Below, piece by piece: positions 1,398-49,914 of a stretch of DNA of 52,821 bases. The stretch is from Catajapyx aquilonaris. Lineage: Eukaryota. The stretch spans positions 1-52,821 of the forward strand of contig KZ538704.1 of NCBI GenBank assembly GCA_000934665.2. Reading direction: 5' to 3'. The notes under the pieces were generated by a model. It saw nothing but the letters and a program-made list of their open reading frames with translations, did not search any database and was not told the origin of the DNA. The position numbers and the translations under genes were made by a program. Position 1 is the stretch's first letter; every line of letters starts with the position of its first letter.

Positions 1398-3500
1398 ATG
1401 TCGTCGGGAGTGGCAGTCAAGGCGGTGAAGGAAGAAGGAGGAGAGCAGCAGGAAGTGAGCACGGAGGAGACCTGGAGACTGCAGATCAAGGAGGAGGACC
1501 CCTCCTGCCTTCAAGACCCATGGAGCTTCATCCAGGGCGTGGTGGAGCAGATCAAGGAGGAAGCCGCAGACGAAGAAGGCCAGTCGGGTGGGAAGGAAGC
1601 TGTGGAAGCCGCGCATGACTCTTTCACCACTCCTACCCATTGGGATGCCAAGGTACAGATTGGGGAAGATGAGCCTGGGTTGCATGGCGGAGGGCATTCC
1701 TTCAGGGGAAAGAGTTTTAATGGCGGCCTCCATGATTGGGTTGGTGTCTCTTCAAGGTTACTCCAAGATATCCCCTTCTTTTTTTAAAAAATGGCATGGT
1801 TACACAGATAACAGATCAAGTTGGGTATTTTATTGAAAGTCATGTACTTATGAGACAAGACCCTTTCTTTTGACCTGCAGGCAATAGTAAGTCACATGCA
1901 AATTAATGACTCAGGTCCACATCCAGGGTGAGAGGAATGATAACTCACGGTTATTGAGGTAGAAAAAGGCTCTCATATTTGAAGTGCATGCATCCAGTAT
2001 ATTATGCAACGGTGCCATTTTTCTTCCCGCCATGGTCCTATGCGCCTTGTGACCATGTACTGTACCTATACATACATTCAACAACAATAATGTTGATGAC
2101 GATAATACAGTAGACTCCAGATATATAAGAGACTTCAAGGGACCACCAAATTCAGGACCCTGAGGTTCCTATTTCCCCTGTCCAAGTATACAGGTTGTGA
2201 TGTGGAAATATGAAGGGACCAGCCCTTCAAGCTTACTCTCTGTCTAAGAGGATTTCTTGTAGCCAAGGCTCTTAGATCCAAAGTCAACTGTAACAAATGT
2301 CATCTTATTTGTTAATATGCCATAATTTTTGCAGTTGAAAGAAGAGTTGGAGCAAGAAGAAGAGAGACCAGATTCATTATTGGAGATGGCACAAGGTTTC
2401 AAGTCTGAGCCTGAAAAGGCCACCAAGGGATCAAAGGAATCAACAGCAAGAGAAAAGGTGGGCGATCCAAATGTTGAATTTGTACACCTAGTGAATTCAA
2501 TCAATGTTAGGCCTATAACACGTCAAGCTAGTGTTTAGGCATTTCATCATAATAATTCATGGCCTGAATGACTTCCACCTAAAACTGCTCGGCTCATGTA
2601 TTAAAATATGATTACTAGTAATAACAAGCAGCTTAGTACCAGTTGTTTAGTAACCAGTAAATGAATTCCTGCTCTAGCCCACTCTCTTCATCTGCATAAT
2701 CATGTTGTGCCAATTGCTTCTGACGCCTGTGTTTCATGTTTGTCCACCTTAACTATCCTTCTGTTAACAAGGCCTTCCTGGGGTGTATTACAGGCCATTG
2801 AGGTGACTAGAAGTTTACTTGAGAGAGAGATGAAGAGGAGGAGAAGCCAGGGGAGGCCACTTTCCCCAAGCGCAACACAGACTCCCCACAGCGTTGAACC
2901 TCAAAAGAATAAGAGGAGGAAGATGGAGGGAATTGCCAAGACCTCTGCATCACAAAAGTCGGGCCTGCCAACGTCTGCATCGACAACTTCTCTACTGGCG
3001 ATGTCTACGCCAGTGGAGGACGCGATGATTAGAACATTGCAGGCTCTTCGTGCGTATGTAAAATGAAAAGCTTCAGTATCGTGTCCCCCCCCAATCACGT
3101 AAAGTAACATACAAACTGGGACGTCATTGCAAGCCATTATTTTGTCCAATTGCCACCTGAAAATTGCCAGACGTGCTGCAATCTTGCATCCAAAACAGAT
3201 GGCAGTAGAGTGTAATTTTTTCTGATGCTGTGAAAGTCATTGTGAATGTGACAATGCTATAAGGAGTCATAATCTGTGTTAACCTATACTGAGTCATCAC
3301 AACAATTTATGTTCCCTTTCAGGCGACTAAGTGAGGAGCCTAAGGAGCCTAAGAAGCCTAAGGAGCCGTCCGACTTCACCAGATTCGCACAGTACGTCGA
3401 GGGCTATTACATGAAATTGTCTGCCAGTACGAAGAAGGCGTTCGAGCAGGCCGTTATCAGATTAGTCTGGGACACCCACAAGGCTGAAGGTGGAAAATAA
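1398..3500 (+). CDS. G1: acidic leader + BESS-like C-terminus (exons 1398-1652, 2335-2457, 2794-3053, 3323-3500)
   Basis: GT-AG introns give one open frame (phases 0,0,2). First two exons are homologous to those of G2 (LKEE..PDSLLEMAQGFK vs LKGE..PDPFMEMIEGFK). Last exon DFTRFAQYVEGYYMKLSASTKKAFEQAVIRLV resembles a BESS motif. Promoter not seen in window. Confidence 0.7.
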
Positions 3501-10668: not shown

Positions 10669-11915
10669 GCATCTAAATTAAATAGACACCTCTTGATAAA
10701 TGTGGGAAAGAAATGCTCGTGTCAATTCACAAAGGAGTGAGACCATTATTGTACGAACGCTGGTACATTATTGTACTCGTAGTTGCCAGCCATGACCAAT
10801 AGTGTATGTCGGATTATCTTGTTTGAAAGAACCTACGGCATGTCATATGGGGAAGAAACCAATTATTATACGTGCTTACCTGGTTGATGGGACGTCTTTG
10901 CAGAAATCATCTTTAAATAATTCAGTCACGATTAATCATAATTGATTTAACTGACATGTTTGAGAATATTTAGGCGTACAGACAGCAAATGCGGGCACAG
11001 TATGATCTGAACACACATGACATAGTTGCTGGATGTGCAGCCATTTGCTTGAAATTATTGCAATGATAATAATTTTAGTAGGCAAGTGATGAGGAGAGAT
11101 GCAGCATGTTTCACCTTGTGTGACGTTCCATTTCAAAAATGGGTAGTGAAACACAAGATATTCTCTTTTGTGCGACGTTCAATTTATCATCCTTTCTGAC
11201 GTCTGGATTCACCTCGTAATATGTAAAGTAACCCAACTGATGCTGTAATAAATGACAGTTTGGACGTTCATTCATGCAATACTCATTGCTTACTATTGGT
11301 TTCAGACAACATCAGCTACTCTTATTACGAGTATCATTTCACACTGTTAGTTTTAAGGTGAAGTAGGGCAAGTTCATATTTGGAAGATGAATTTTCAATA
11401 TTTCCTGCCAGAAAAGTATTGATTTGTGAATGCATTTTTAAATGTGTGTCAACGAAACATTTATTCTTTTTTTCAGAAATTACATACATTTATCACATTG
11501 GTCATGTACGCTATATTATGAAATTATTAATGGCAGAGTGTGTTACATTTTGTTGACAATAGCGACCCACACAACAGTAGGGCTTGATAAGTCCTTCATG
11601 CCAAAATTGAGTTTAATGGGCAGGGTAATTTTTTTCGAGGAGCAAAATAATTTGCAAGTAAAATTCCTTCCACCTATTGTAGTTGAAAATTGTGACATTT
11701 TAAAATGGACAAATCCATCGATTTTTAGGTGAAAATATTTCAGAGGAGCTGCAATAAAAGTCGTGTAAAAGTCATCTAGGTGTGAAACCAGTGAATGCTT
11801 CTCGCATTGCCGTTTCATTTTCTTGGGTAATGTTACAGTTGTGTTGTTTTTTTTAAATCTACGTATAGCTATGTTTCATTTCAATGAATACTCACCGATC
11901 TAATACATCTTTCAG

Positions 11916-12362: not shown

Positions 12363-12582
12363 CGTTCAGTCACGCAGTTTGAATCACCACATCGCAGCAT
12401 GACTCTCAATGTGGATTGACTTGTGTATTGATTTGTAATAATATATCTGTCAGTGTTTAGTTTAGAAATAATCCAGCCAATTAAATAAATATCTGTTTTT
12501 GAGATAATTCAGCTGGTAGCTAACAGCTAAATGGCGATCGCTGTTTCTGCCAAGAACCGGTGACAGTAACCGCTACTGCTGC

Positions 12583-12662
12583 TAGCGGCTTTTAGAAGCC
12601 TCAGGCTGTGAGCAGATCCACGGCAGGCGTCGGAATGCATCCCAAAAATTCCAAAATGGCGG
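12583..12662 (+). promoter_or_regulatory. Cluster promoter, G4
   Basis: TAGCGG 12583; GGCGTCGGAATGCATCCC 12626-12643; CAAAATGGCGG 12652-12662. Confidence 0.7.
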
Positions 12663-12766
12663 AGTCGCTTTCGTTCGATCGGATCAGGTCCAAGCTTCTC
12701 TCGGCGTGAGTTGAACCGTTTCCTTCCCTTTGCCATGGCTGTTCACGAGCTGTTTTGTTTCGCAGG

Positions 12767-14510
12767 ATGTTGCCCTTGGCTTCGGAGATCAAGAAGGAGG
12801 AGGAGGAGGAGGAGGACGGGGAATTAGCTGCGGGGGATGATGAGGTGCAGCTGCCTGATGATGATGATGACCTTCCTGCTGTCAAGGTGGAGTCTGCTGA
12901 AGAAAGGTCTGCCGGATGGTGTCATTTTTAAGGTGTCGAGATCAAAGTGTCACTTTTCCCAAAGAAAGGAACACTGCCCGTTTTCAATGGAAGTGACTGC
13001 ATCTCTTAGGACAGGGTCGTACCTGTATCTGAAAGTGTTTTCACGCCTTTTCCCAGGGCTATGTCATTGGTGTTAAAGATCAAGCAGGAAGAGGAGGAGG
13101 AGGAGGACAAATTAGGAGAGATAAAAGAAGAGCCAGAGATAGACGTACCGGTAGATCAAATGGAGGACGGCGAGGAAATGGAAGAAGACGGCGAAGGAAT
13201 GGTGACGACAGAGGATTTGTGGAGTTTGGTCATGAAGGAGGAACCTCGTTTGGCGGAACCAACTGCCGTGGAAGTACCGGATGAGGTGGCATCGGATGGG
13301 GCACCAAATGTGGAAAGCGTGGCTTCCAGCAATGTAGGCACCCCACTGGGAGCCACATCCAGAAGGACTTCTGCTGGAGGACAGGTACGCTGTCATCGGA
13401 AATGTGCGCTTGATGTTCACCTCCGCTTTCTATTAGCATTACAGTTGGAGTGAGATGTCCGACATGCACCTTGCCTATGGCGAAGCACAGGGGCGTGGTA
13501 GAGAAGCCCAGAGGGTGTACCAGGAACTATTTCCAAAGAGGAAATTGCCAAATGGCTCCACCTTTGCAGCAATTGACCAGCGGCTGAGGGAATACGGTTG
13601 TCTCTACAAACAAGCACGTGAGACTGGACGACCCGCCACTGTGGCAACTGCAAGCATGAAGAAGAGAGTGTTGGACTGCTTCAGAGAGGGGTCTGCCTCT
13701 AGCCTTCGCAGCGTGGCCCGTGCCCTGGGCACCAGTACCAGCACTGTTAGGAAGATTGTGAATGAGCACAGGCAGCAGTTCCACATGTACGCAGAGAGGG
13801 TGCACATACTGGGTCCGGATGACTTCCCTTTGCGGGTGGAGTTTGCCGAGTGGTTTCTGAAGCAACATGCAGCGGATCCCCAGTTTCCGTCCCTTGTGCT
13901 CTTTACTGATGAAGCATCGTTTGATCTGGAGGACGCATGGAACTCCAGAAACAGCAGCGTCTGGGAGAAAGAGAACCGTCTCGCCGTACGACCCAAGAGC
14001 CAGCAAGATAGAGTTTCGGTAAACGTGTGGGTAGGAATTCTAGGAGACCTCTTGCTGGGTCCACTTCTGCTCCCGCAAGACCTAGATGCCAGGTCGTACA
14101 GGGTGTTTCTGGGCCACTCGTTGCCAGAGCTGCTGGAGTGTGTTCCGCTGGACATGCGCATGAAAATGTGGTTCCAGCATGACGGGGTGTCTGCTCATTT
14201 TGGGTCTGGTGTTGGTAAGTGCCTGAAGAGGACCTTTTGCGACAGGAGGATCAGCCAGGGCGGCCCTGTGTCCTGGCCACCACGGTCACCGGACCTCACT
14301 CCCGTCGACTTTTTTCTGTGGAGTTACATCAAGACTCTAGTGTACGAGACCCCAGTGGATTCGGAGCAGATTCTTCTCGCCCGAATCATGGCAGCATGTG
14401 AAGTGATACGGGCAACAGACTGCATATTTCAGCAAGTGCGCGAGTCCATGTTGCGTCGCTGCAAGGCCTGCGTCCAGGCCAACGGGCGCAACTTTGGCCA
14501 CTTCCTTTAA
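12767..14510 (+). CDS. G4: two acidic exons fused to a DD41D (rosa-type) Tc1/mariner transposase with DUF4817-type HTH; exons 12767-12906, 13057-13384, 13437-14510
   Basis: Phase-2 then phase-0 introns are in frame. Exon 3 starts HYSWSEMSDMHLAYGEAQG; motifs FTDEASF, FQHDG, WPPRSPDLTPVDFFLW with 41 residues between the 2nd and 3rd D. No TIRs seen. Confidence 0.85.
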
Positions 14511-14887
14511 CTGCATAAGCTGAGGATCTGTTCGAAACTGTTGTGCTTCCGGTGAAATTTTGTTCAGAAATGTGGTATTTTTTAATGCACTTCATACCTG
14601 CCAAACTTTGCATAGTAATCACAGTTTTACGTACATAATTATGAAATGTACCAACTTTTGCAGTGTGTCGGATCATGTTATTAAATTGTTTCGACTCAAT
14701 AAAGGGCTATATTGACCGATTGGCGTTTGAACCGAAAGAAATTTATTATTTCCACGAATTCGCCCTGGAAGGGCAGTAGAAACTTAGTTTAGCCTACTCT
14801 TTAAAAAAAAAGTATCAAATGAAACAGTTGATGGGAAGGGGTTTTAACTATAATTATTTTCAATAATAAATCAGCGGAAATAGCCAG

Positions 14888-15023
14888 ATAGCGCTCATTG
14901 TCGGTCGCCGAGTAGCAGTAGCGGTTAATAGGTAACTGCTACTGACCACGTAGCGCATAAGACCCTGGCTGACACGGTCGGGCGCCCGAATGCACCCTCA
15001 CAGGGCAATCCAAGATGGCGGCC
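14888..15023 (+). promoter_or_regulatory. Cluster promoter, G5
   Basis: TAGCGG 14919; TAGCGCATAAG 14951-14961; GGCGCCCGAATGCACCC 14981-14997; CAAGATGGCGGCC 15011-15023. Confidence 0.75.
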
Positions 15024-15274
15024 ATTCATTCGCATAATTTTCTTCAATTATCTTTAATTTTTCGCTCCTGAATTGCAGGGAAAGGATTGTTTGGAGCTGG
15101 AAATTTGCAGGGTCAGCTGCAGGGTGAGTATGACGGGGAAAGGAAGAAGGTGGGCATGCCTGAGGAGGAGGACAAGCCCTCCCCTAGTCCTCAGCAGAGT
15201 TGGGCGTATGAATAAGTGTGCTTTGATGATGAACCACAGTTTCAACTGACTTCCACTAATTTCTTTTCAAGGCC

Positions 15275-17015
15275 ATGTCGCACCAGAGGCTGACAATCAA
15301 GGAGGCAGAGGGAGGTGATGGCTTGCCAAGGACTCCAGATGAGACGGGGGAGTCACACTTGAAGGTGGACGAACCTGCATCGTCGTCTGGGGATGACTTG
15401 ATGTGTACCAAAGTTATTCATGCTGGTGGCCATGTGGAGGATGATGAAGAGATGGTGACAACTCTTAATGAGCAGGCTCAAGCTGCTCATGATCCATTGG
15501 CAGTTGCCGCTGCAGATGAGGTACTCATACTTCCACATCATGTGTGATAAGCATTAAAATGTTGTTAAATTTTGGCACCCAATAAATTCAGTGAACTCGG
15601 GACAATCATTTTTCTCGTCGATGGTGCAGTGCAGCTAATAAAGAATTGTGATCATTGCTCCCCAGGCGCCTCATGGATTGGAAATGCAGCCGGTACGACG
15701 AGAAGAAAAGAGGGCAGAACATGACACGCAGTTGTCGTCCTCCACCGAGAAACCAGTAATGGATGAAGAACGGCCATTATTTCAATTGAAGCAGGTAACA
15801 AAGACTTACAAGAAACGAAGGAAGAAGGTGGATAATGCTCAGGATTCTCCTGCAAAGGCAAAGGTTAGTTGTTGATAATGAAGGGGTTATGAATAGAATG
15901 AGAATAAGTAATTGATTGCTTTGCTCTTGGAGGCCATTGGTTACTGTCCATCACAATTAAATTCATTAACGGCTGTACTATTAATCACGAAAATAATGTC
16001 GCACTGTTATGTGATGGCGTCTGCGACTTGTTGTTAAGCATAGGTTGTGGATTCCGGAATATTGCCATATTAACACCCGTAACTTGGCAATGACCATGCT
16101 AAACAACAAGTCGCAGACCCCATCACATTACAGTGCCACATTAAGGTGCGCTTACATGTGAGCAATTTGATCGCGCCATGTCAATGGTTACTTTCACCTC
16201 AAGCGGGTTACTAACGCTCGGCGATGACATTGCTCGATCAAATCACTGACATGTGAACACACCTTCACTTTTGCGGTTAATAGTACATGAGCCATCTTGG
16301 CTGTGAAACTCTGGTTGCATATCTTCTGGATCAGTTGGAAAGGAAGACTTACACCACTACAAAGTTACTAATGAAGTGCATCTTTCAGCAGGAAGTGCAA
16401 GAGAAAGAAGATGATGGGACGCCTGCAAAAATCCAGGAGCAAAGTAATGTGCAGCAGCAAATATCATATGTTTGCCAATTGTGCCAGCAAGTGTTGGCTG
16501 AGCCGTCAGACTTGGAAACGCATATGAAGATTCATGCTGAAGATAACCCATTAACTTGCGTAATATGCAGGAAGACATATTCTCAGAGAAGTTCGCTGTC
16601 CATTCACATGAGGATCCACACTGGGGAGAAGCCTTACAGTTGTCAGTTTTGCCAGAAAAAGTTCCGCCAGTCATTTGATATGAAGGTGCACATGGCAACT
16701 CATACGGGAGACAAGCCGTTTTCTTGTGAAGTGTGCGACAAGGAGTTCATTCTTGCCAGCAAGGTGCGGATCCACATGAAGACCCACACCGGGGAGAAGC
16801 GATTACGTTGCGAACTGTGCAATAAGAGGTACATGTGGCCCAGTGACCTGAGAATCCACATGAGGACCCACACGGGAGAGAAGCCCCATCCCTGCCCAGT
16901 CTGCCACAAAGGTTTCAGTCGGGTAGGGGACATGAACGCGCACAGGAAAGTGCACCGGACGGTCGCCGTTTGGTTGCCAGCAACTGCCGGAGGGAAAGAT
17001 CAGCCAGGCAATTGA
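15275..17015 (+). CDS. G5: acidic leader + basic linker exon + 6 C2H2 fingers; exons 15275-15520, 15666-15863, 16389-17015
   Basis: All phase 0; leader ends HDPLAVAAADE|gtactc; exon 2 has KKRRKK; TGEKP linkers. Confidence 0.85.
15994..16265. mobile_element. Two adjacent palindromic MITEs (15994-16143; 16143-16265)
   Basis: TAATGTCGCACTG..GACTTGTTG / CAACAAGTC..CAGTGCCACATTA and AAGGTGCGCTTACATGT / ACATGTGAACACACCTT inverted arms. Confidence 0.65.
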
Positions 17016-23503: not shown

Positions 23504-25613
23504 ATGCCGAAGGTGACTCGGGGCAGGCGGAGGGGAAGGAGCAGCAGCCGCGTCGGGAAAGGGTGAGCGGGAGGAGTCACAGAGATGGAGATACAATCTG
23601 TGGGGATAAGGAGGACCTGGTGGGAAAATGAAAGTGATTATTGTTTGACTGGCTGGTGTTTATTCCAGGACAGTGTCACTCGCACTGGAAAACAATGGGG
23701 AGCTGGAGGAAGAAGATGGGGATGGCGGCGAAGGGGAGACGTGGCCACTGGAGGAGGAAGCCTCACCCCACTCGCAGGATGCTTTTACAGAGTTCACGCT
23801 GCTTCGCGGGGTCAAAGGGGAGGCCATGGAGGATGAGGGGGATTGCACAGCTACGGGGAAGGCTTCATGCTTCGATGGCCACTCGCCACTCGTAGAAGTC
23901 AAGGAAGAACCAGAAGCGATGATTGCAACCGCATCTGAAGTGCCCACAGACGCTGATGACCCATTGACACTGAATTCTGAAGCCACCGCAGAGGTACACC
24001 TTTGCTACCATTTTTTGTATTAAAAAATACACAAGGCAAGCACTGTAATGAGATCCTCATTTTCTATCTCAAAATAATAACTCTCTGAGTGATAAAATGC
24101 TGCAGTGCTGACAAGGGTCAGAGGGGCCTTCACATTTTCAAAAAAACTGTGGCCGGGACATACAGATTGCTTGTGACTGGTTTTTTCTCTGAAGATTATC
24201 ACAACATAATTTTTCGCTTATGCTTTTGCAACATGTACATACGCCAGGAGGGACGGTGACAACTAGGTGGATTGATTATACCTGATAACTAGCGCCTTCC
24301 TACCGGTATGCCCCAATGTGAATGTTGGGATATTGGAGTAGGAAATCTGTTACGTTTTATCATACTCCAAGGTGTTCACTTAGACAGAGTGTTCTTGGGT
24401 TATCTTTAGTGCACCGTGAAGGAAGTTGAGGGAGGATGGCCCTGTGGGGTGTTGGGCAGTTCAAGGCCACTTGACTGCAATGTGACAGCAATGGGGAGCT
24501 TGGCACCGGTTGGGAGAATGGCAGCGGACAGGATGAACACAAAGGCATTCTTTGCCATGTATTACGGAGGGATCAGGTCTATCGTGGGATGGTGCATGGA
24601 GGTGGGCCTTCTGCCCAAGAGCTGCACATGTGAGCGTTGCGGAGAGGAAGCCCATGTGTACTACCACCCTGGTATGTCACTTGGCCATTCCTGTTTCACT
24701 GTCTTTGTGATTAATGTGTTCCTCTTTTCAAACCTAATTCAGATGGAGACGTTAAGTGGGTGTGCAATCAACAGCGGCTGCGGTGGTCCAAGTCAGTTTT
24801 CAAGTGCAGCATATTTAAAGACTGCCACATTGGTGCTCCCAATGTGCTTATTTTTATGCTGCACTTCTCAAGAGGACACACGGCCTATGACTTCCTGTCT
24901 TCTGAGTTGGGTGAAGGAGAGGCTGAAGCTTCTTCTAAAACAATTTCTAGATACTTATTACAGTTCCGAGAGATTTGTTTCACATGGTTGGAAGAAATGT
25001 ACAAGGAAGAAGGGAGAATTGCAGGGCCTGGTCATGTAGTAGAAATTTTCGAGACCAAAATTGGTTAGTGGTTGCTTGGTTCACTCTTTCGGATTTTTAA
25101 ATTGTGCGTCACATGCTAACATATCTTGGTTCTTTAGGTAAGCGCAAGTATCACAAAGGCAAGATTGCTGATGGTTGTTGGCTAGTGGTGATTGTCGAGA
25201 GAGGGGAAGCCCATGGGCCGGCAGGAGGAAGGTTCCGTATTTTCATTTGCCCTAACAAGAGGAGAAATGGACAAACCCTAGTTGACATCATAAAAACCAA
25301 TGTTGCGTCTGGAACCACTGTCGTCACTGATCTGTGGGGAGGCTGCGATGGTGCCAACGCAGAGAGATTTGATCGTCTCACTGAAGACCACTCCATGAAC
25401 ATTGTGGATCCAGTGACATGGACAAACAAACGAGCTAGGGAGTCGGAATGGCGACCGGTAAAGACTATAGTGGCGAGAGGTGGCCATGCGAAGACCTCCC
25501 TCTTCCTTCTCTTGGCGGAGCATCTCTGGAGGAACGAGATGAAGAGGACAGGCACTGACCCATTCATGGGGCTGGTGTCCATTTGTTCAAAAGTGTATAA
25601 AATTGCCCATTAA
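23504..25613 (+). CDS. G8: acidic leader + Merlin/ISXO2 (IS1595-like) transposase derivative; exons 23504-23562, 23669-23993, 24410-24671, 24743-25063, 25138-25613
   Basis: One open frame across phases 2,0,1,1. Motifs CTCERCG, IAGPGHVVEIFETKIGKRKYHKG, GTTVVTDLW, DHSMNIVDPVT, RESEWR match the Merlin pattern VEIDE..KRKYHRG / SDxW / NHS.NFVDP.T / IESxW, with first D changed to F. Start codon uncertain. Confidence 0.8.
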
Positions 25614-26179
25614 AGACCAAGTTCCATGGACACTGCACATAAAATTATTGGGTTCTTTTCCTGCAGAGGCTGTTATTGGGGATGTACGTGGTAAGTGATC
25701 AGGTAGGTTAGGTTAGGTTGCACAGGAACATTCATCTACCCAGTAATAGTGAAGGTATTCATTTCTGCCACACTCATCAGTACAGCCACAATCACGTATT
25801 TAAATTATTTGCTTGCCGGGTTCATCCATTGCAGTTGGCTGTTGTGCACACAAAGTTTTAGTAAGACAATTTATTTTAGTAGATGTACACGCACACACAT
25901 ACATGCACGCAGAACTAATAAGAGTGAGGAGAACCAGTTGCAGTTACTCTGTCAGGATATCACTCAGACAAGTAGTCATCATAAATGAATGCTTGTATAT
26001 CAGGATGCACGCAAGAGGTGAGGTCATACACATTGTACGCTGGTACATGTGATTGTATGCCATTTTGACTTGCAATGGTTGAAGAGAGTGCAGTAGTGTT
26101 CATGATAGAGAGTTGATGTTCATGCATCACGACGAAATGATTTTCTGGAATATGCGCCAAAGCACGCCTAACTAAAGGG

Positions 26180-26250
26180 ACAAGGAAGAAGAAGAAGAAA
26201 TGATTGCAACTGTATCTGAAAGTGTCCCCAGGTGCTGATGACCCATTAAC
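26180..26250 (+). pseudogene. Orphan fragment of a leader exon
   Basis: AAGGAAGAAGAA..ATGATTGCAACTGTATCTGAA..GCTGATGACCCATTAAC matches the EMIATASE..ADDPL end of leaders, frameshifted. Confidence 0.65.
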
Positions 26251-26308
26251 AATTAATTAATTATTATTGTGAAGTGACTGGTCTGTCGCTACTAAATTAT
26301 TTTATTTG

Positions 26309-26399
26309 GGCGGTAGCAGTTACCCCTCCCCGATAGCGCTTAACACCTTCCAGTCCATCGTCCAGCGATCGGAATGCACCCGAATCCAAGATGGCCGCC
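26309..26399 (+). promoter_or_regulatory. Cluster promoter, G9
   Basis: GATAGCGCTTAA 26332; GCGATCGGAATGCACCC 26365-26381; CAAGATGGCCGCC 26387-26399. Confidence 0.75.
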
Positions 26400-26639
26400 C
26401 CTTTCTTCTCTTCATTATAAATCGATCGTTTTCGAAGTGATTCCTCTTCGATTTTTGCTCCGTTTTCTTCCTCTTCTTGACCTGGTTTGTTCTCTGTCTC
26501 TGGCTGGAGTGACCGGAGGACGAGGAGCTGGAGCAAGGTGAGTGGATGGACGGAGAGGGAGGGAGACCGACGGTGGCAGGCATATGCCACTCTTATTGTG
26601 ATTATATCATCTGCCCTGCTTATTGTGTGTTCCAGGAAC

Positions 26640-28453
26640 ATGTCGTTTGTGCTGAAGATCAAGGAGGAGGAGGAACTGGAAGATGAGGACCACGACGACA
26701 CTGCGAGGAAGAGAGCCAAGGTGGAGGCCTCTTCAGGCTTCGATGGCGACGACTCACCTCCCGTTGACGATGATGACGGGCTTTGTGAGGTGAAGGAAGA
26801 ACCAGAAGAGATGATTGCAACCGCATCTGAAGTGCCCACAGACGCTGATGACCCATTGAATTCTGAGGCCACCCCAGAGGTACGCCTTTTGCCAACTTTT
26901 TTGCAACACCTACGCGAAGTGCGGAAAACTTACCAAGTGATCTGACGTCATCAGCAGGGTTTCCATGGAGACCCCCTCACAGAACAATACGAGTAAACAG
27001 TGTCAACAAAAAAGAAATCAGTGGAAGATACAATGACGTCAGATTTTCGTTAGGTTTTCCGCACTGTTGGCCAGGAGGGAAAAGGTGAAAACTAGATGCA
27101 TTGCTCATGCCAGTCAACCAATTGCGTTCCTACTGGTATATCCCAGTCTGAAGGTTGATCTGCACCCAAGAATTTATGCCCAACTGCACAAATAGAAAAT
27201 TTGTTATGTTGAATATAGAGGTGTGAACCTATAGACAGGGTGTTCTTGGATGATTTTCAGTGCTCAACGAAGGAGGTTGGGGAAGGCCAGCACTCTGTGG
27301 TGTTGGTCGATTTAAGGCCACTTCGCTGCGACGTGGGACAGGTGAGGAGAATGGCAGCGGACAGGATGAACACCAAGGAATTTTTTGCCATGTATTACGG
27401 AGGGATCAATTCTATTGTGGGATGGTGCATGGAGGTGGGCCTTGTCCCCAAGACTTGCAAATGCGACCGTTGCGGAGAGGCAGCCCATGTGTACTCTGAC
27501 CCTGGTTAGTCACTTGGTCATTCTTACATCGTTTTCATCATATGATTCATGTAATTCTATTTTAATCCTAATGTGTAGATGGAAGGGCTTATTGGAGGTG
27601 CAAGAAACAAGGGCTAGAGTGGTCCAAGACTGTATTCAAGGGCAGCATCTTTCAAAACTGCAATATTGGTGCTCCCAATGTGCTCATCTTTATGCTGCAC
27701 TTCTCAAGAGGACACACGGCCTATGACTTCCTTGCTTCTGAGCTGAGGGAAGGAGAGACTGGGGTTTCCGCTAATACCATTTGTCGATACTTACTACAGT
27801 TCAGAGAGTTATGTTTTGCTTGGTTGGAGGAAATTTACAAGGAGGAAGGGAAAATTGGAGGGTCCGGTCATGTAGTAGAAATTTTTGAGACCAAAATTGG
27901 TTAGTTGTTGCTTGGTTCACTCTTTCGGATGCTTTTATTTTTTACGTCGCATGCTAATGTAACTTTCTTTTTTTTAGGAAAGCTCAAGTATCACAAAGGC
28001 AAGATTGCTGATGGTCATTGTCTAGTGGTGATTGTCGAGAGAGGAGAAGCCCATGGACCGGCAGGAGGCAGGTTCCGTATTTTCATTTGCCCCAACAAGA
28101 GGAGAAATGGACAAACCCTAGTTGACATCATAAAGGCCAATGTTGCGTCTGGAACCACAGTCGTCACTGATCTGTGGGGAGGCTGTGATGGTGCCAACGA
28201 AGAGAGATTTGATCGTTTCACTGAAGGCCACTCCATGCACTTTGCGGATCCAGTGACATGGACAAACAAGCGAGCTAGGGAGTCGGAATGGCGACCGTTA
28301 AAGGCTATAGTGGCGAGAGGTGGCCATGCGAAGACCTCCCTCTTCCTTCTCTTGGCAGAGCACCTGTGGAGGAACGAGATGAAGAGGACAGGCACTGACC
28401 CATTCATGGGGCTGGTGTCAATTTGTTCAAAAGTGTATAAAATTGCCCATTAA
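26640..28453 (+). CDS. G9: acidic leader + Merlin/ISXO2 transposase derivative; exons 26640-26879, 27261-27504, 27579-27899, 27978-28453
   Basis: Same intron positions and phases as G8; VVEIFETKIG; open frame throughout. Confidence 0.85.
26918..27065. mobile_element. Short MITE in G9 intron
   Basis: AGTGCGGAAAAC..TCTGACGTCAT / ATGACGTCAGA..GTTTTCCGCACT inverted arms; absent from the homologous G10 intron. Confidence 0.6.
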
Positions 28454-28506
28454 AGAGAGCCTAACATTATATTAATTGCGTTAAGTTCCCCATTAAAGGT
28501 TCTCCA

Positions 28507-28599
28507 TAGCTGGCGGTAGCTGTTACCCCCCGATAGCGCTTGACACCTTCCAGTCCATCGTCCAGCGATCGGAATGCACCCGAATCCAAGATGGCCGCC
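28507..28599 (+). promoter_or_regulatory. Cluster promoter, G10
   Basis: Near-identical to G9 promoter; GCGATCGGAATGCACCC 28565-28581; CAAGATGGCCGCC 28587-28599. Confidence 0.75.
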
Positions 28600-28854
28600 C
28601 CTTTCTCCTCATTATAAATCGATTGAATTTGTTTTCGAAGTAATTCCTCTTCGATTTTCGCTCCGTTTCCTTCCTCTTCTTGCCCTGGTTTGTTCTCTGC
28701 CTCTGGCTGGAGTGACCGGAGGACAAAGAGTTGGAGCAAGGTGAGTGGGCCGTGGACGGAGAGGGAGGGAGGGGAGAGAGACCGACGGTGGCAGGCATAT
28801 GCCACTCTTATTGTGATTATATCATCTGCCCTGCTTATTGTGTGTTTCAGGAAC

Positions 28855-30948
28855 ATGTCGTTTGTGCTGAAGATCAAGGAGGAGGAGGAACTGGAAGAGG
28901 ACCACGACGACACTGCGAGGAAGAGAGCCAAGGTGGAGGCCTCTTCCCGCTTCGATGGCGACGACTCACCTCCCGTTGACAATGATGATGACGGGCTTTG
29001 TGAGGTGAAGGAAGAACCAGAAGAGATGATTGCAACAGCATCTGAAGTGCCCACTGACGCTGATGACCCATTGACACTGAATTCTGAAGCCGCCGCAGAG
29101 GTACGCCTTTTGCCAAACTTTTTTAAAAAAGATGCAGGCAAGCACCAGCTAATGAAATTCTTTATTTTATTTTTATTTTGTACTTGAATAACCTTAGAGT
29201 AGTAAAGTGTTGCTAATGCTGGTGAGGGTCAAGGTTAGAGGCCCATTGTAATATGTGACCTGGACATTCACATTGCTTGTCCTTGGTGTACCACGGGGAG
29301 TTTTTAAGCTATGAAGATTACCAAATCAAAAACAAAAAACCTTGTAGTTTTGCAATGCCTACATTGGCCAGGAGTAGGGAAGGTGAAAACTAGGTCCCAT
29401 GCCAGTCAACTGTCTCTCTCTCTCTCTGCCACTATATTTGACCATGACAGTTTTTAAAATTGCAATTAGGGGGGGTGGGGCCATACTTGTGAGCCTTATT
29501 TCCAGGCGAGTTATATTGAAGGCCAAAGTTGGTTAATGTGGCAGTACATACGGCCAGGGGTGGCTGGGGGGCAGTGGCTGTGTTTCAAAAACGGAGCAGG
29601 CAGCCTAGGAAAGCGGGCAGGAATAAAATTATTAACACGAATGTATTATACATTTAAAATTTAAACAAATAATTGTGATAATTGTGATTTCAAATTTATA
29701 ATCCACAGAGTTGCGGGAGAGCAGGCAGGCAGGCAAGCAACAAGATGGCAGGAAGAGAGGACACGGGAACTTCAGCCGACACAATCCCCACGGTACTGCC
29801 GCTGCCATCGGCCCCAACCACTACCAACCCACAGCACCCTGCTGTGGCCCGACCCGGCCTGGAGTTGAATAACAAGGAATTTTTTAACGTATACTATGCT
29901 GGGACTAAGGCAATGGTGGAGTGGTGCATGCAGTTGGGCCTTGTCACCAAGAGTTGCACATGTCCTCGCTGTGGACAGGCCGCCTACATGTATTATGGAC
30001 CTGGTTAGTCCATTGGTGTTTTGTAGCATTTACTTCATGGTTCATGCATTCCTTCATTTTCTCCCTAATGCAGATGGACTTGTTCAGTGGAGGTGCCACA
30101 AGCAAGGTTTCAAGTGGTCCCAGTCGGTGTTCAAAGACAGTGTGTTTGCAAACAGCAATGTTGGAATTTCCAATGTGATGCTTCTTATGCTGCACTTCTC
30201 AAGAGGCCACACGGCCTACAGCTTCCTGGCTTCGGAGCTGCGTGATGGACAGGTTCCAAGTGCTCACGACACCATTTCGCGTTACTTACAGCACTTCAGG
30301 GAGCTCTGTTTCATGTGGTTGGAAGAGATGTACCAGGAGGAAGGCAAAATTGGAGGATCTGGTCATGTAGTGGAAATTGTCGAGTCCAAAATTGGTTAGT
30401 TGTTGCTTGGTTCACTCTTTCAGATGCTTTTATTTTTTACGTCACATGCTAATGTAACTTTCTTTTTTTTAGGAAAGCTCAAGTATCACAAAGGCAAGAT
30501 TGCTGATGGTCACTGGCTAGTGGTGATTGTCGAGAGAGGAGAAGCCCATGGACCGGCAGGAGGCAGGTTCCGTATTTTCATTTGCCCCAACAAGAGGAGA
30601 AATGGAGAAACCCTCGTTGACATCATAAAAACCAATGTTGCGTCTGGAACCACAGTCGTCACTGATCTGTGGGGAGGCTGTGATGGTGCCAACGCAGAGA
30701 GATTTGATCGTCTCACTGTGAATCAATCCATGAACATTGCGGATCCAGTGACATGGACAAACAAGCGAGCGAGGGAGTCGAAATGGCTACCATTAACTGC
30801 CATAGTGGCAAAAGGTGGCCATACAAGGACCTCCCGCTTCCTTCTCTTGGCGGAGCATCTCTGGAGGAACGAGATGAAGAGGACAGGCACTGACCCATTC
30901 ATGGGGCTGGTGTCCATCTGTTCGAAACAATTTAAAACTGCCCATTAA
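28855..30948 (+). CDS. G10: acidic leader + Merlin/ISXO2 transposase derivative; exons 28855-29100, 29709-30003, 30074-30394, 30473-30948
   Basis: Open frame, phases 0,1,1; CTCPRCG; VVEIVESKIG (first catalytic D changed to V). Confidence 0.85.
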
Positions 30949-37090: not shown

Positions 37091-38354
37091 ATGTCGTTTG
37101 TGCTGAAGATCAAGGAGGAGGAACTGGAAGAGGAAGATGGGGATGGAGAGGCTGGGAGGCTGCCACCGAATAAGGAGGAAACTGCATCGCACGCACAAGA
37201 CGACTCCGCATTTGCACAAGTCATGATTCATGAGGTCAAAGGTGAAATGGAAGAGGAGATGGAAGACGACAGCGTCGCCACAGAGAAGATGGTGAAGGTG
37301 GAGACCGCTTCATGCTACGATGACGACTCCGCACATGCTGTTGATGCTGTCCGTTGTGAGGCCAAGGGAGAACAAGGCTCGGACATGGTTTCAACTGTAT
37401 CTGAAATGACCGCAGATGCTGATGATGATGATCCATTAATAGCGAATTCTGGAGCGACCGCTGACGAGGTATATGTCACTAATGACTCTTTTTTTTGCAA
37501 GTGACAAGCTGCGCCGCCTAATTTTCCCCCTAAAATAATAACTCCTGAGTGATAAAGTGTTGCCTTTCTTTTATGAATGGCTGTGTTTTTGTGTGTAAAG
37601 GCCCATACACACTGGCCGTCGACGGTTTTGGTTTTTGGTCGCGTTGACGCCGCGGACCAATCATGACTCATGTAAACAAGGGCAACCCATTGTTTAGAGC
37701 TTGTTTATATGGGTCATGATTGGTCCGCGGCGACAACGCAACCAAAAACCAGAACCGTCAACGGCCTGTGTGTATGGGCCAGCCTGATTTCTGAGTAGGT
37801 TTAATCATAAGGCACTCAAAGTGATGTAATGCTTTTTGCAGGGATTACATGGTGCTGCTGCTGGGAGGAATGTGACAGGAGTACAAGAGAACGATAGTGG
37901 CATGACCCAGGAAAATGAGGAGCCGTACACTTGTCACATTTGTCGCTATAAGTTCAGGCAGACATTTCACTTGAGGAGGCACATGTTGACGCACACTGGC
38001 GAGAAGCTCTTTTCCTGCCGCATTTGCGAGAAGAAGTTCAGGCAAGCCTCGCATGTGAACCACCACATGTTGACTCACACGGGAGAGAAGCCGTTCGTGT
38101 GCCCCATATGCGATAAGAGGTTTTCAGATTCGTCAAACATGCGGAGGCACGTGGTGCGTCACGCGGGAAAGAAGCCCTTCTCCTGCCAAGTATGCCACAA
38201 GGAGTTTGCTGAATCAATTTATTTGAAAAACCACATGACGATCCACACGGAAGAAAAGGCATTTTGTTGTCACATTTGTCAAAAGCAGTTTGCTCGGCTG
38301 GATTACGTGAAAAAACACCTGAAAGCGATTCACAAAGACATCGAAGGTAATTGA
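37091..38354 (+). CDS. G12: acidic leader + 5 C2H2 fingers; exons 37091-37468, 37842-38354
   Basis: MSFVLKIKEEE..DDDPLIANSGATADE|gtatat, phase 0, in frame with finger exon. Confidence 0.85.
37600..37780. mobile_element. Palindromic MITE, PIF/Harbinger-like ends
   Basis: GGCCCATACACA / TGTGTATGGGCC termini, about 80-bp inverted arms. Confidence 0.75.
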
Positions 38355-44155: not shown

Positions 44156-44339
44156 CAAGAGGATTATTGTTGCATTTAAATGAACTTTTTCATTGTACAT
44201 ATTTCAACGTACTACTATAAATTGTGCGCCAGAAAACGTTTCGTTCACTTTCGTAGCTATCGCGTCTAATGCGCGATCGCTTCTTTACTAGTCACCGCTA
44301 CATTGTCACCGTGATTTTAGTTCATATCTTCAAGGCGCG

Positions 44340-44506
44340 GTCCGTTCCTCTTTCCTCCAGTCTGTTCCGCTTTCTTATGCTTCGTTCCGCTTTCTTCTGC
44401 TCCGTTCCCCTGTCTTCCCCTCTCTTCTGCTCCGTTCCTCTCTCTTCTGCTCCGTTCCCCTCTTTTCTGGTCCATTCCTCTGTCTTCTGGTCCGTTCCGT
44501 CTTTCC
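44340..44506. repeat. ~20-bp pyrimidine-rich tandem repeat (CTCCGTTCCTCTCTCTTCTG-like, about 8 units) just 5' of DCPS
   Basis: Visible periodic TCCGTTCC..TCTTCTG units. Confidence 0.8.
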
Positions 44507-44518
44507 AATGAAAGAAAG

Positions 44519-45920
44519 ATGGCGTCGGTTGAATCCACGGTTGGATCTTCATCACCTTCATCTTCTTCGTCTCCTGCCCCGAAGAGACCTCGTCTCTCAT
44601 CCGATCCGGCGGGAGATGAACGGGTCACGACGCTTCCGTCCGTCAGGTCCATCCTGGCCAGCCTGGAGCCCCGTCGGATCCTTCGGCAGGACCCGGAAAG
44701 GAAGCTGCTCTGGCTGGAAGGGGCAGTGGGAGGCCAGAAGGCCATCCTCCTCCTGGAGAAGTCTCCCTTCGGACTGGAGCAGCAAGGGAAGGAGCAGCTC
44801 AAGGTTCTGGACGAACTGGTTCGAAACAGTCTGCTGGAAGGTTGGAAGGAAGACCAAGAGACGCAGCCGGATCAGACCAGCAGCACCGACCAGGATGAAT
44901 CATTCCGCAGCGTCCTCCTCCCAGTCAAGGGACATCCTTTCAATGGTAATAACACAGGCATACCAGCAAGGAAGACGTTTCTCTTTAAATAAACTTAATT
45001 AACCTTCCGCTGACCTGACTTTTCCTCTGCAGTTGTCAAGTCGACGTTGATCTACCCTGCGACTGACGCACACATCGCCAAGTACAGCGAGTCCAAGTCG
45101 TTCCTAATCAACGAGACGCCCAAGCTGTACGCAGATGTCACTCTTCCTGTCGTTAACAAGCAGGCCCCGAAGATCCAGGTGAATCAACATAATTGGAATT
45201 AAATTTTGAGCGCGGATTGCAGCCTTTTGCTGTGTTCCAAATAATTTTGATGAAGCAACTTTTATTGTAGCCTCGATGGTTTTCTAACTTCACACTTGCG
45301 ATTTCAGTGGGTGAGGAACATTCTGAACCACAAGAGTGAATCGGAAAGAATAGTGTTTGAAGACCCTGACCCCGCAGTTGGCTTCATACTTCTTCCGGAT
45401 CTAAAGTGGGATGGGATCCTGAAGGACACCCTGTACCTGGTTGCCATCGTTCACCGGGAGGGGATCAGATCGCTGCGGGATCTTACGCCAGAGCACTTGC
45501 CGCTACTTGAGAACGTGAAAGACAAAGGGACGGTGAGTGGTCGTTTGTTGGTACTGCAGCAGAGTCGAGTGCCTATTATTATCTGTGAAAGTCTGACCCG
45601 ACTTCTCTATTCACCAGAAAGCAATCTGCGACAAGTACGGCCTTCGATCGAGCCAGCTTCGGATCTGCCTGCACTACCAGCCAACCTATTACCATCTCCA
45701 CCTGCACTTTACATACCTGAACTTTGATGCGCCTGGAATTGACGCCACAAAATCTCACCTGCTCTCAACCGTCATGAGGAACATCAATCTGGTTCCAGAC
45801 TATTACCAGCGATCAACCATTCCGTTTGTCGTGTACGAAGGTACAGCACTTTACCACAAATACGTGGAAGCAGGCCATCTCTTTAAAGATGACACGAGTG
45901 ACAGAACTGATCAGGACTAG
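44519..45920 (+). CDS. DCPS: m7GpppX diphosphatase (scavenger decapping enzyme); exons 44519-44945, 45033-45178, 45308-45532, 45618-45920
   Basis: [49 protein letters not shown], and histidine triad [13 protein letters not shown]. Confidence 0.95.
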
Positions 45921-47190: not shown

Positions 47191-48209
47191 ATGGCTGAAG
47201 TTCACGTAATCGGAGAGATAGTCGGAGGCAAGTCCTTTCCAGGCCGAAACATCTTCTGCAAGTTTTACTGTGGCGCAGGTATGACCCAACACTTATTGGC
47301 ACTTCTGCAGTAAACAAATAACCAATCATGCACCAACATTGATTTCATTTGACATATAATATGGGATAGGCTTTGTGTCCATGACTGAATCACTCTCGCT
47401 CTCCTATTACAGCTTGTACTTGTGCTCCTGATACTTGTTAAACTTATACAAAAAAAATGTTATTTTATTAGGAGACGCATGGTCGGTTCTGGAAGGTGAG
47501 GTTGAAGGACAAACACAAGTAGACTGCCCCCTTCATGACAACTTATCCTGCTGGAGCCACCCTATTGACATACATTATGGCACCAAAGGTATCAAAGGTG
47601 TGTGTACCACTGTTCCTCACATTCCCATTGACAGTCGCACTGCACAGGGTGGCCTTAAAGTCTGGGCACATGTTGCATTGTTGGTTGCCAGTTACTGTCA
47701 ACTAGCAATACAATACAATACAAAATTACGTATGCCTACGTGTCCAGACTTTGGGCATTTTTAGGGCCATCCTGTACAAGGGGCATTCATTTAGCAATGT
47801 TGCAGAGTGATTCATAAACATTACAATAACATTACAGAAACAAACTCTTTCTTCAATGTTACGTAATGATCTTCAAAGCCGGATTTTGCTCGTAGGTTGG
47901 CCGAAGATACACGTGGAGGTGTACCATCTAGACGCGTTTGGGCGCAGTGAGATCTACGCATACGGCTGTTGCTACATCCCATGCACACCTGGACCCCATC
48001 AAATCGAGGTGCAGACCTGGCGACCAATCAGCTCCACCCGGGACAGGATCACGCAGTTCTTTCTCGGAGGAGGACCTGAACTGAGATCCCCCGAGTTGGT
48101 CTACACTGGAGTGGACCGGTACCGGCTACAAACGCAGTCCATGGGAACAGTGCATCTCGAGATGAACATCCTGTTCAAAAACTTCAGAGACTTTGGAGTC
48201 GAGTACTAA
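47191..48209 (+). CDS. B9D2: B9 domain-containing protein 2 (ciliary transition zone); exons 47191-47278, 47472-47597, 47896-48209
   Basis: MAEVHVIGEI.., [43 protein letters not shown], C-terminal FGVEY. Confidence 0.93.
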
Positions 48210-48217
48210 CATGTATA

Positions 48218-48779
48218 CAGGGTGTAAATGAATTCAACCGACAAACTTCTAGGGGTGATCGAGGGGACCAAGACAAACATTTTTGACATAGGAACCCGTG
48301 TCCGGAAACGCCATCTAGAGGGGGTTCATAGACAAGGAATGGGTGCGCTCAGACGCGTCACGCGTGAGGCGCTAGTCGAGCGGACTGTTTTGTTGATAGA
48401 TGGCGCTCGGATAGTAACCAACGATGCGATGTGCCATAACGTGGCAACAGCAGAGCCATCTAGCAACTAAAGTCCGCCTCCTAGGAGAGGCGCGGATGGT
48501 CAACAGCGGTTCTGTTGTTGCCAGGTTCTGGCGTATCGCGTTGTTGTTTACTTACAACGACGCGATACGCCATAACCTGGCAACAACTGCGCGCCATCTA
48601 TCAACAAAACAGTCCGCTCGACTTGCGCCTCTCGCGTGACGCGTCTGAGCGCACCCGTTCCTCGTCTATGAACCCCCTCTAGATGGCGTTTCCGGACACG
48701 GTTTTCTATGTCAAAAATGTTTGTCTTGGTCCCCTCTATCACCCCTACAAGTTTGTCGGTTGAATTCATTTACACCCTG
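48218..48779. mobile_element. Long palindromic Tc1/mariner-type MITE
   Basis: TIR CAGGGTGTAAATGAATTCAACCGACAAACT, inverted arms of about 190 bp or more with few mismatches, TA duplicated at 48216-48217 and 48780-48781. Confidence 0.9.
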
Positions 48780-49914
48780 TATACCAAACACTTGTTCTTC
48801 TTTTTGCAATTATTGTAGTAGTAAACAGAAATTTTACAACAGTCTCACCTGATAATGAGACATTTTATGTATGGCAATGTGACATTTTCTGTATGACAAT
48901 ATGACATTTATGCATGATAATTTGGGTTTCCATTTGAGAGAATCACCCTGTACTTTTTGTGTACATGTTTGTGTTACATCTGGCACATACCGAACAGGCC
49001 AGGCCACGTTGCACTGGACACCCAACATGGCTGCTGGTAGGCTCCATTCTGGCCCTGTTGTATTGTCAAAAAGCAGGATGGGCTTTCCAGAAGTACATGA
49101 TGTCATGTGGCCACCTGTGACACGCTTGGGGGGAGTGACACCGGAGTTTGGTTCAGGCCAACGGCTCCGGAGTGGCGGAGTTGAACCCAGTTCCGGAGCG
49201 GATTCGGGCAATAATTCGCACCAATCGTATAGAAACACTAGTATGGAGTGGCTCATGGAAAATTGATGGGTGGAATTTATTTTCGTCGTACTACTATTAG
49301 TCTATTACTATTAACTATAGGTCTGTAGTAGTTACTGCTAACTAAGCAGTACCATTGCACTACACTGGTGCTGCTAAGTTAGAAGTAACTAGTAGTACGA
49401 CAGAAATTCCACAAATTTGTTTTCAGAAAGGAGATTTCATGAGCAGTAAATTGGTAATTGCTTGAGTAAGACCTATGGTACAGCTTAAATCAATTGGTGA
49501 AGGTCTTACGTGCGCCTGCCTTGTTTCAGTACCTTCATTCCGCCGCGGAGGTCTTACTACCCTCTTTTTCACTCGAGGGAATGTTTTTGCTCTTGTTACT
49601 AGTAGGCTACTCATGTCACAAAACTTTGTCTTGCAAACAAGACAATGGCATGGTTTTACTTCCACTTGGAAACCTGCCCATAACTGACCCCGAGTATAGA
49701 GAAACCCTATCCATTGCGAAATGGGCATAGGACTTGCGAGGTATTTTTTATTGCATGCAATTCACATGTTTCACTCTACATCCTTACTGAATTTCTTCGG
49801 AAAATTGCACAGGCAAAATGTATCTCTCCTGTATGAATTCACATTAGTTTTCCAATTATGGGATTACTTGAAATCTTCATGCCACAGTCTACATGTAGGC
49901 CTAAATGGTTTCTC

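Follow-up and report, generated by a model that had tools for sequence, protein, structure and literature searches.

The window, a stretch of 52,821 nucleotides that makes up contig C1305 of a 286-Mb genome, contains a gene in which the acidic leader exon of a tandem zinc-finger family is spliced onto a full-length DD41D Tc1/mariner transposase. A host–transposase fusion, as proposed by the first-pass annotation, is supported by the spliced joint, the single copy in the genome, the lack of terminal inverted repeats (TIRs) and the absence of the native start Met. With moderate confidence, we regard it as a domesticated fusion gene whose product acts as a DNA-binding or chromatin factor with impaired nuclease activity. 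In the mechanism that we propose, a unit of a tandem C2H2 zinc-finger family would have received an ancient DD41D insertion, and the acidic leader exon of that unit, as seen in one contig, is today joined in frame to the transposase ORF by splicing. The TIRs and start codon of the element and the zinc-finger exon of the unit are absent and would have been lost, such that the transposase part would replace the zinc-finger array as a DNA-targeting or dimerising module, whereas the leader, by analogy, would bring in co-regulators. The parts of the gene, all on the plus strand, are as follows.

12566..12580, +, promoter-region motif of the TAACCGCTAC type, common to other units of the cluster, with a putative promoter role
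12653..12662, +, AAAATGGCGG, a motif that we take to be YY1-like, near the presumed transcription start
12706..12765, +, predicted first intron of 60 nt (GTGAGT...TTTCGCAG), called from sequence only, following a predicted non-coding first exon
12766..12906, +, acidic exon A, putatively coding, with ATG 12767, 43% D/E and the motifs IKKE and VKVE; donor uncertain
13057..13384, +, family leader exon B; ATG 13061 follows the acceptor by four bases, a spacing shared with paralogous units
13385..13436, +, fusion intron of 52 nt, phase 0, GT..AG (GTACGC...TATTAG), skipped in one X1 contig
13437..14510, +, transposase exon, an open 357-aa DD41D Tc1/mariner ORF without a start Met (358 codons including the stop)
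13464..13604, +, DUF4817 helix-turn-helix (HTH1), residues 10–56, from a Pfam match and conserved columns
13908..14309, +, catalytic triad D158 (13908), D249 (14181) and D291 (14307), from the homologue alignment
14511..14732, +, 3′ UTR without a TIR, with AATAAA at 14698–14703, from the sequence and the end of an X1 contig

The splice joint and the surrounding gene cluster

The splice join between a donor at 13384 and an acceptor at 13436, predicted in the first-pass annotation, was borne out, as one contig of the run X1 joins 13384 to 13437 and skips exactly the 52-nt GT..AG intron, placing leader exon B and the transposase exon in frame (52 letters on the short side of the contig, depth 2.9). 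X1 is a run of unrecorded kind that has no RNA label on record; it behaves like spliced RNA, in that X1 contigs also skip two introns of the next gene (15521–15665 and 15864–16388, both GT..AG). The alternative acceptor at 13444 is out of frame and is used by none of the X1 joints. The fusion transcript is very likely real. The junction contig includes 13187–13384 of leader exon B, and at the other end of the gene an X1 contig spans 14465–14732 and ends ∼30 nt past the AATAAA, a weak hint, from one run, that 14732 is the 3′ end of the transcript.

Leader exon B comprises 108 codons (13061–13384; 29% D/E), and the secure product, starting from ATG 13061, is 465 aa in length. Two acidic exons had been annotated, of which exon B stands, whereas the start of exon A at 12767 is uncertain: its acceptor at 12766 is good and an ATG is present, but the in-frame GT donors to the acceptor at 13056 (after 12891, 12906 and 12918) are all weak. 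If exon A is coding, the product would be 508, 513 or 517 aa, respectively. X1 gives no cover over 12510–13112, where repeats are skipped, and thus carries no weight against exon A. The fusion gene has promoter-like motifs and a poly(A) signal of its own and lacks a zinc-finger exon; a search for a C2H2 remnant in 12480–15300 found none.

The fusion gene occupies one slot of a cluster, flanked by zinc-finger genes at 11904 and 16284. The cluster is a tandem family of small genes, in which a short acidic leader exon (typically MSxVLKIKEEE...DDPL) is mostly followed by a C2H2 zinc-finger exon. Window-wide, 14 DPL-type acidic leader stretches were counted, many of them 3′ of AAGATGGC-type and TAAC(C/T)GCTAC-type motifs, which suggests that promoter and leader were duplicated together as whole units across the cluster. 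Motifs related to TAACCGCTAC recur at 12521, 14927, 14932, 26323, 28525, 30983 and 36799, and motifs similar to AAAATGGCGG at 15012, 17261, 4880 and ∼23417. The leader of the fusion gene can be aligned to nine leader exons from elsewhere in the window; at the position of DDPL it reads GTPL, in agreement with the earlier observation that the usual DDPL is missing. Its motifs IKQE, IKEE and MKEE are of the psi-K-x-E SUMO type. Elsewhere in the cluster, the next gene (15012–17015) has a YY1-like motif and leader of its own and ends in a zinc-finger exon, whereas the leader unit at 1398–3066 has a last exon (2665–3066) with neither a zinc finger nor a Pfam match. Three tandem units at 23504–30948 combine a leader with an ISXO2/Merlin-like exon, one of which matches Pfam IS1595 (E 3e-5, below cut-off).

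The transposase exon and resident DD41D elements

A homology search with the 357-aa ORF gave 759 relatives, the best 120 of which are 41–49% identical and mostly 357–358 aa in length (query cover 93–100%), with homology covering all of the ORF from residue 2 onwards and ending at the ORF edges. The DUF4817 match to residues 10–56 (E 7e-6) lies above the cut-off. The start Met is found three residues ahead of the Tyr aligned to residue 2 here in 69 of the best 120 of 759 homologues, and the acceptor therefore stands at the expected place of the start codon; the proposal that the leader is joined at the very front of the transposase thus holds. The D-D41-D triad (D158, D249, D291) is intact, as had been stated, and the 41-residue spacing between D249 and D291 is found in 120/120 (best 120 of 759). 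Identity as a transposase domain is indicated by both sequence and fold matches to Mos1, Sleeping Beauty and SETMAR. An AlphaFold model made with 120 homologues has a pLDDT of 86, with the Mos1 paired-end complex as the top Foldseek match (E 2e-12), followed by Sleeping Beauty and SETMAR. The transposase part is predicted from this model to keep its fold, although the model follows the alignment and is uninformative about point changes. A quick IQ-TREE of 48 rows, including 40 of the best 120 homologues and own-genome copies, groups the exon with DD41D homologues (SH-aLRT 99), the tree having no named rosa, Visitor or LTIR reference. The GC3 of the exon (0.63) falls within the range of resident transposases (0.52–0.68), and GC3 and CpG give no separation.

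A DNA search of the genome with the exon returned 1 match from 1 candidate, in keeping with the single copy that had been expected, while in the same search the positive control, a MITE of the window, was matched in 40/40 scored candidates at 95–100% identity. The first-pass annotation had named many near-identical TIR-flanked copies as a finding that would speak against a host fusion, and a search of the genome found none. At the protein level, 116 genome matches were listed (621 candidates, 114 scored), and among the matches listed the best other than the exon itself has 46% identity in the catalytic region.

The earlier report of no TIRs was likewise upheld, as no inverted repeat was detected around the ORF locus at E<=0.01. 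Of the other DD41D loci matched, 29 were examined and 16 inverted-repeat pairs were compared: the 16 arms give only 9–15-nt matches to the ORF locus (E 0.02–0.7), none of which lies inside the 52-nt intron or in 14511–14732. Ten of the 16 pairs start with TA-CAGGGTG on both arms, and none flanks the window ORF. Two TIR candidates were rejected, an exact TACAGGGTG at 14097, which is internal to the ORF, and a 14-nt inverted repeat at ∼12567/14914, which is the shared promoter motif. The traits of an autonomous DD41D element, namely TIRs with a TA target duplication and multiple near-identical copies, are thus absent here.

Resident DD41D elements are present in the same genome. L007 (G000:C4921) and L008 (G000:C5800) are TIR-flanked, with open 354-codon ORFs and TIRs of ∼200 nt, and constitute a recently active resident family. 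Within the window, 48213–48784 is a DD41D-type MITE with 194-nt TIRs starting TA-CAGGGTG; it gave 1484 candidates at first look, and all 40 scored candidates (40/40) are full-length.

Active-site changes, constraint and competing explanations

Among the best 120 of 759 homologues, 94 columns are at least 90% conserved, and the exon is changed at 15 of them (homologue median 3, maximum 9), a statistic that is weakened by the own-genome control and is not used alone. By region, the changed columns number 0/12 in HTH1 (residues 1–57), 3/8 in HTH2, 3/5 in the linker, 3/35 in the early catalytic domain, 6/28 around the second and third Asp, and 0/6 at the C-terminus. R67A, R70A, E75K, P86S and W105R alter HTH2 and the linker before it. 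End-binding by the transposase part is plausible from its sequence, although DNA binding may be weakened by the HTH2 and linker changes, given which any binding site may also have drifted from the ancestral TIR.

The six changes around the second and third Asp are A251V, P252S, W271R, G273S and R274Q, which lie within this segment, and G296S just after it, with A251V and P252S situated in the loop behind the second Asp. In the best 120 of 759 homologues, P252 is kept in 119/120, W271 in 120, G273 in 117, R274 in 118 and G296 in 120; all five residues are unchanged in all 11 own-genome copies aligned and all five are altered here. H174S is a further change at a conserved position. The first-pass annotation had read the motif at the second Asp as QDGAP changed to HDGVS; the A251V and P252S changes are real, whereas H248 is the norm of the family (93%, best 120 of 759). 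Given the altered conserved residues next to the second and third Asp, the nuclease is probably impaired, with cutting lost or much reduced, and the suggestion that the fusion retains nuclease activity becomes doubtful with five near-invariant residues (P252, W271, G273, R274 and G296) changed.

Whether these changes accumulated under constraint bears directly on the chief rival of domestication, an old exonised relic in which the splice is real and the protein decays slowly under little or no selection. Such a relic would fit the changes in both the DNA-binding and the catalytic regions, several of which are single transitions, judging from the codons, of the kind seen in plain decay. It would also fit the low depth of the junction and the blank orthologue search: no orthologue was found among full-length, shorter and longer proteins, the best matches being 49% identical at full length and 37–58% identical as fragments, none of which shares more than 2/9 diagnostic changes. 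Furthermore, the ORF was selected for openness. On the other hand, no TIRs or sister copies are left, nor any DNA similarity outside the ORF, yet 357 codons are still open over the full length. In 10 copies of a resident family, 21 stops or frameshifts occur per 220 amino-acid changes and 8/10 copies carry at least one. The probability of the ORF staying open by chance is P ∼0.003 at ∼60 neutral changes, 0.057 at 30 and 0.32 at 12, a calibration that is soft, as the number of post-capture changes is uncertain. Near-invariant columns are also spared, with 41/44 kept (7% lost) against ∼17% excess change in the other classes (P ∼0.04). The column and decay tests lean to constraint, and we consider it likely that the fusion has been kept by selection and unlikely that it is a relic.

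Also on the side of constraint, the end branch of the exon is the longest in the quick tree (1.07 versus <=0.78 for the 40 homologues, drawn from the best 120), although the own-genome copies L004 and L005 have long branches too (0.9 and 0.88). Resident copies depart at 0–9 of up to 52 conserved columns, compared with 7/52 here, and part of the divergence may therefore predate capture and belong to the mobile life of the element.

That the triad is kept since the fusion still nicks or cuts DNA, i.e. a domesticated nuclease, appears quite improbable. All three Asp are retained, as are H248, H254, the RSPDL motif, K299 and Y303. In Sleeping Beauty, a His-His stack positions the second Asp and structures the following loop (PMC4820933, in the passages available), and both His of such a stack are present here; RSPDL is, by alignment, the counterpart of the Mos1 YSPDL pocket, a motif that helps place DNA for cleavage (PMC4344528, likewise in part). 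Against these stand A251V and P252S in the loop behind the second Asp, and W271R, G273S, R274Q, G296S and H174S at positions that are 97–100% conserved (best 120 of 759). The passages on Mos1 and Sleeping Beauty in these two papers do not cover the changed positions, those on Mos1 having nothing on W268, A251 or P252.

It is highly improbable that the exon is a normal DD41D copy, still or until recently mobile, that lies behind a host exon and is translated from ATG 13455. Although the ORF is full-length and open with an intact triad and an in-frame ATG at residue 7, the exon is single-copy, lacks TIRs and is spliced to the leader, and a start at ATG 13455 would fall within the predicted first helix (residues 4–16) and lose the conserved E6 (86%, best 120 of 759).

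Relation to known fusions and the proposed role of the leader

The first-pass annotation had drawn a parallel with SETMAR, which holds insofar as a host domain and a whole mariner-type transposase are combined in both, as far as SETMAR/Metnase is described in the available part of PMC13548663. There, the transposase part of SETMAR is mainly a DNA-binding module that has lost the catalytic triad, whereas in the present fusion the triad itself is intact and the residues beside it are changed; SET is moreover a folded enzyme, in contrast to the low-complexity acidic leader. The closer resemblance is to KRABINER, which the present fusion works like without being a member of that group. In the KRABINER/KRAB-transposase fusions of tetrapods, for which criteria and a survey are given by Cosby et al. 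(bioRxiv 10.1101/2020.05.07.082677, seen in part as are the other sources of this section), a C2H2 zinc-finger gene likewise contributes its N-terminal exon, which is spliced to a full-length Tc1/mariner transposase. The survey covers capture by the leader exons of zinc-finger genes, KRAB being the commonest partner, and reports that older fusions retain the fusion transcript alone, a pattern that the missing finger exon fits (10.1101/2020.05.07.082677). The differences are that the leader here is not KRAB, that the transposase is DD41D rather than DD34D, that the survey is of tetrapods only, and that there is here no cognate TIR family or consensus from which to trace the acceptor or the binding site. 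With respect to the structural criteria of Cosby et al., a transposase domain and at least two exons in frame with host-derived sequence are present; with respect to their criterion of RNA support for introns, the fusion intron is covered by one X1 contig, from a run of unrecorded kind, and the upstream introns are uncovered. For their criterion of purifying selection (dN/dS below 1) in syntenic orthologues, the protein searches found no orthologue, and the indirect tests lean to constraint.

DD41D is the hallmark of the rosa and LTIR groups (PMC5490172), and the exon shares with rosa/Visitor DD41D and LTIR elements the DD41D spacing, the 357-aa length and two HTH motifs as described in the available part of that paper; it differs in having no TIRs, no start Met and a single copy, and in being spliced to a host exon. 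In cyprinid fish, FiNZ genes (PMC10547256) similarly carry a lineage-specific, Glu-rich N-terminal single exon without known-domain similarity before the zinc-finger exon; the likeness is by description only, lineage and sequence being different, and the available text of PMC10547256 does not mention transposase capture. Domestication of Tc1/mariner in invertebrates is represented by the Drosophila genes CG14478, CG4570, cag and toy (2026 survey, PMC13548663), in which, unlike here, the DNA-binding or the catalytic module alone is kept. The same survey leaves room for future cases that retain both modules or are fused to new host domains, and its main text contains no mention of DD41D, Visitor, rosa or DUF4817. 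An F-box/HTH capture is described in Caenorhabditis (PMC12062965, in part). A literature search of main texts, mostly open-access, for a DD41D host fusion found none, and the supplementary fusion table of Cosby et al. may bear on this point.

By analogy with KRAB in tetrapods, the leader probably recruits chromatin co-regulators. Pfam assigned no family, KRAB included, to either acidic exon at E<=0.01. Three further leader searches, all of low power for acidic low-complexity sequence, were similarly blank: a profile built from 10 leaders had 0 matches among 1.84 billion proteins, the ESM Atlas gave no usable match, and the single leader protein against its own genome matched itself alone. Longer fused forms sought among proteins amounted to 2 matches, neither with an acidic leader, one being DD41D followed by a hAT-like region (read by eye) and the other an unannotated 1039-aa gene model.

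A more speculative joint reading, to which we give little weight, is that the leader would be an undescribed invertebrate counterpart of KRAB/FiNZ, that the cluster would repeatedly capture transposases (with Merlin three times in the window), and that the fusion, in which the leader would be linked to recognition of DD41D ends or to dimerisation, would silence or poison resident DD41D elements and their high-copy MITEs, the triad serving in DNA or metal binding rather than cutting.

As a single gene, the domesticated fusion is one further example of a known process in which a host gene arises from a captured transposase. A junction-supported capture involving a non-KRAB leader and a DD41D element, in a lineage that from its gene style is probably arthropod, nevertheless suggests that the capture route is convergent, and it is now testable what the acidic leader recruits and whether the captured transposase targets the remnants of its own family.

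A 55-nt inverted repeat (27231–27285/31717–31771, 75%) brackets part of the Merlin cluster, its left arm starting with ATAGACAGGGTG and resembling a decayed DD41D end. Inverted-repeat elements, MITE-like or hairpins, with arms that are 91–100% complementary, lie at 1–833, 15994–16143 and 37600–37780. Near the right end of the window, beside the cluster, DcpS and B9-C2 genes are located at 44321–45920 and 47811–48209 and are possible synteny anchors.
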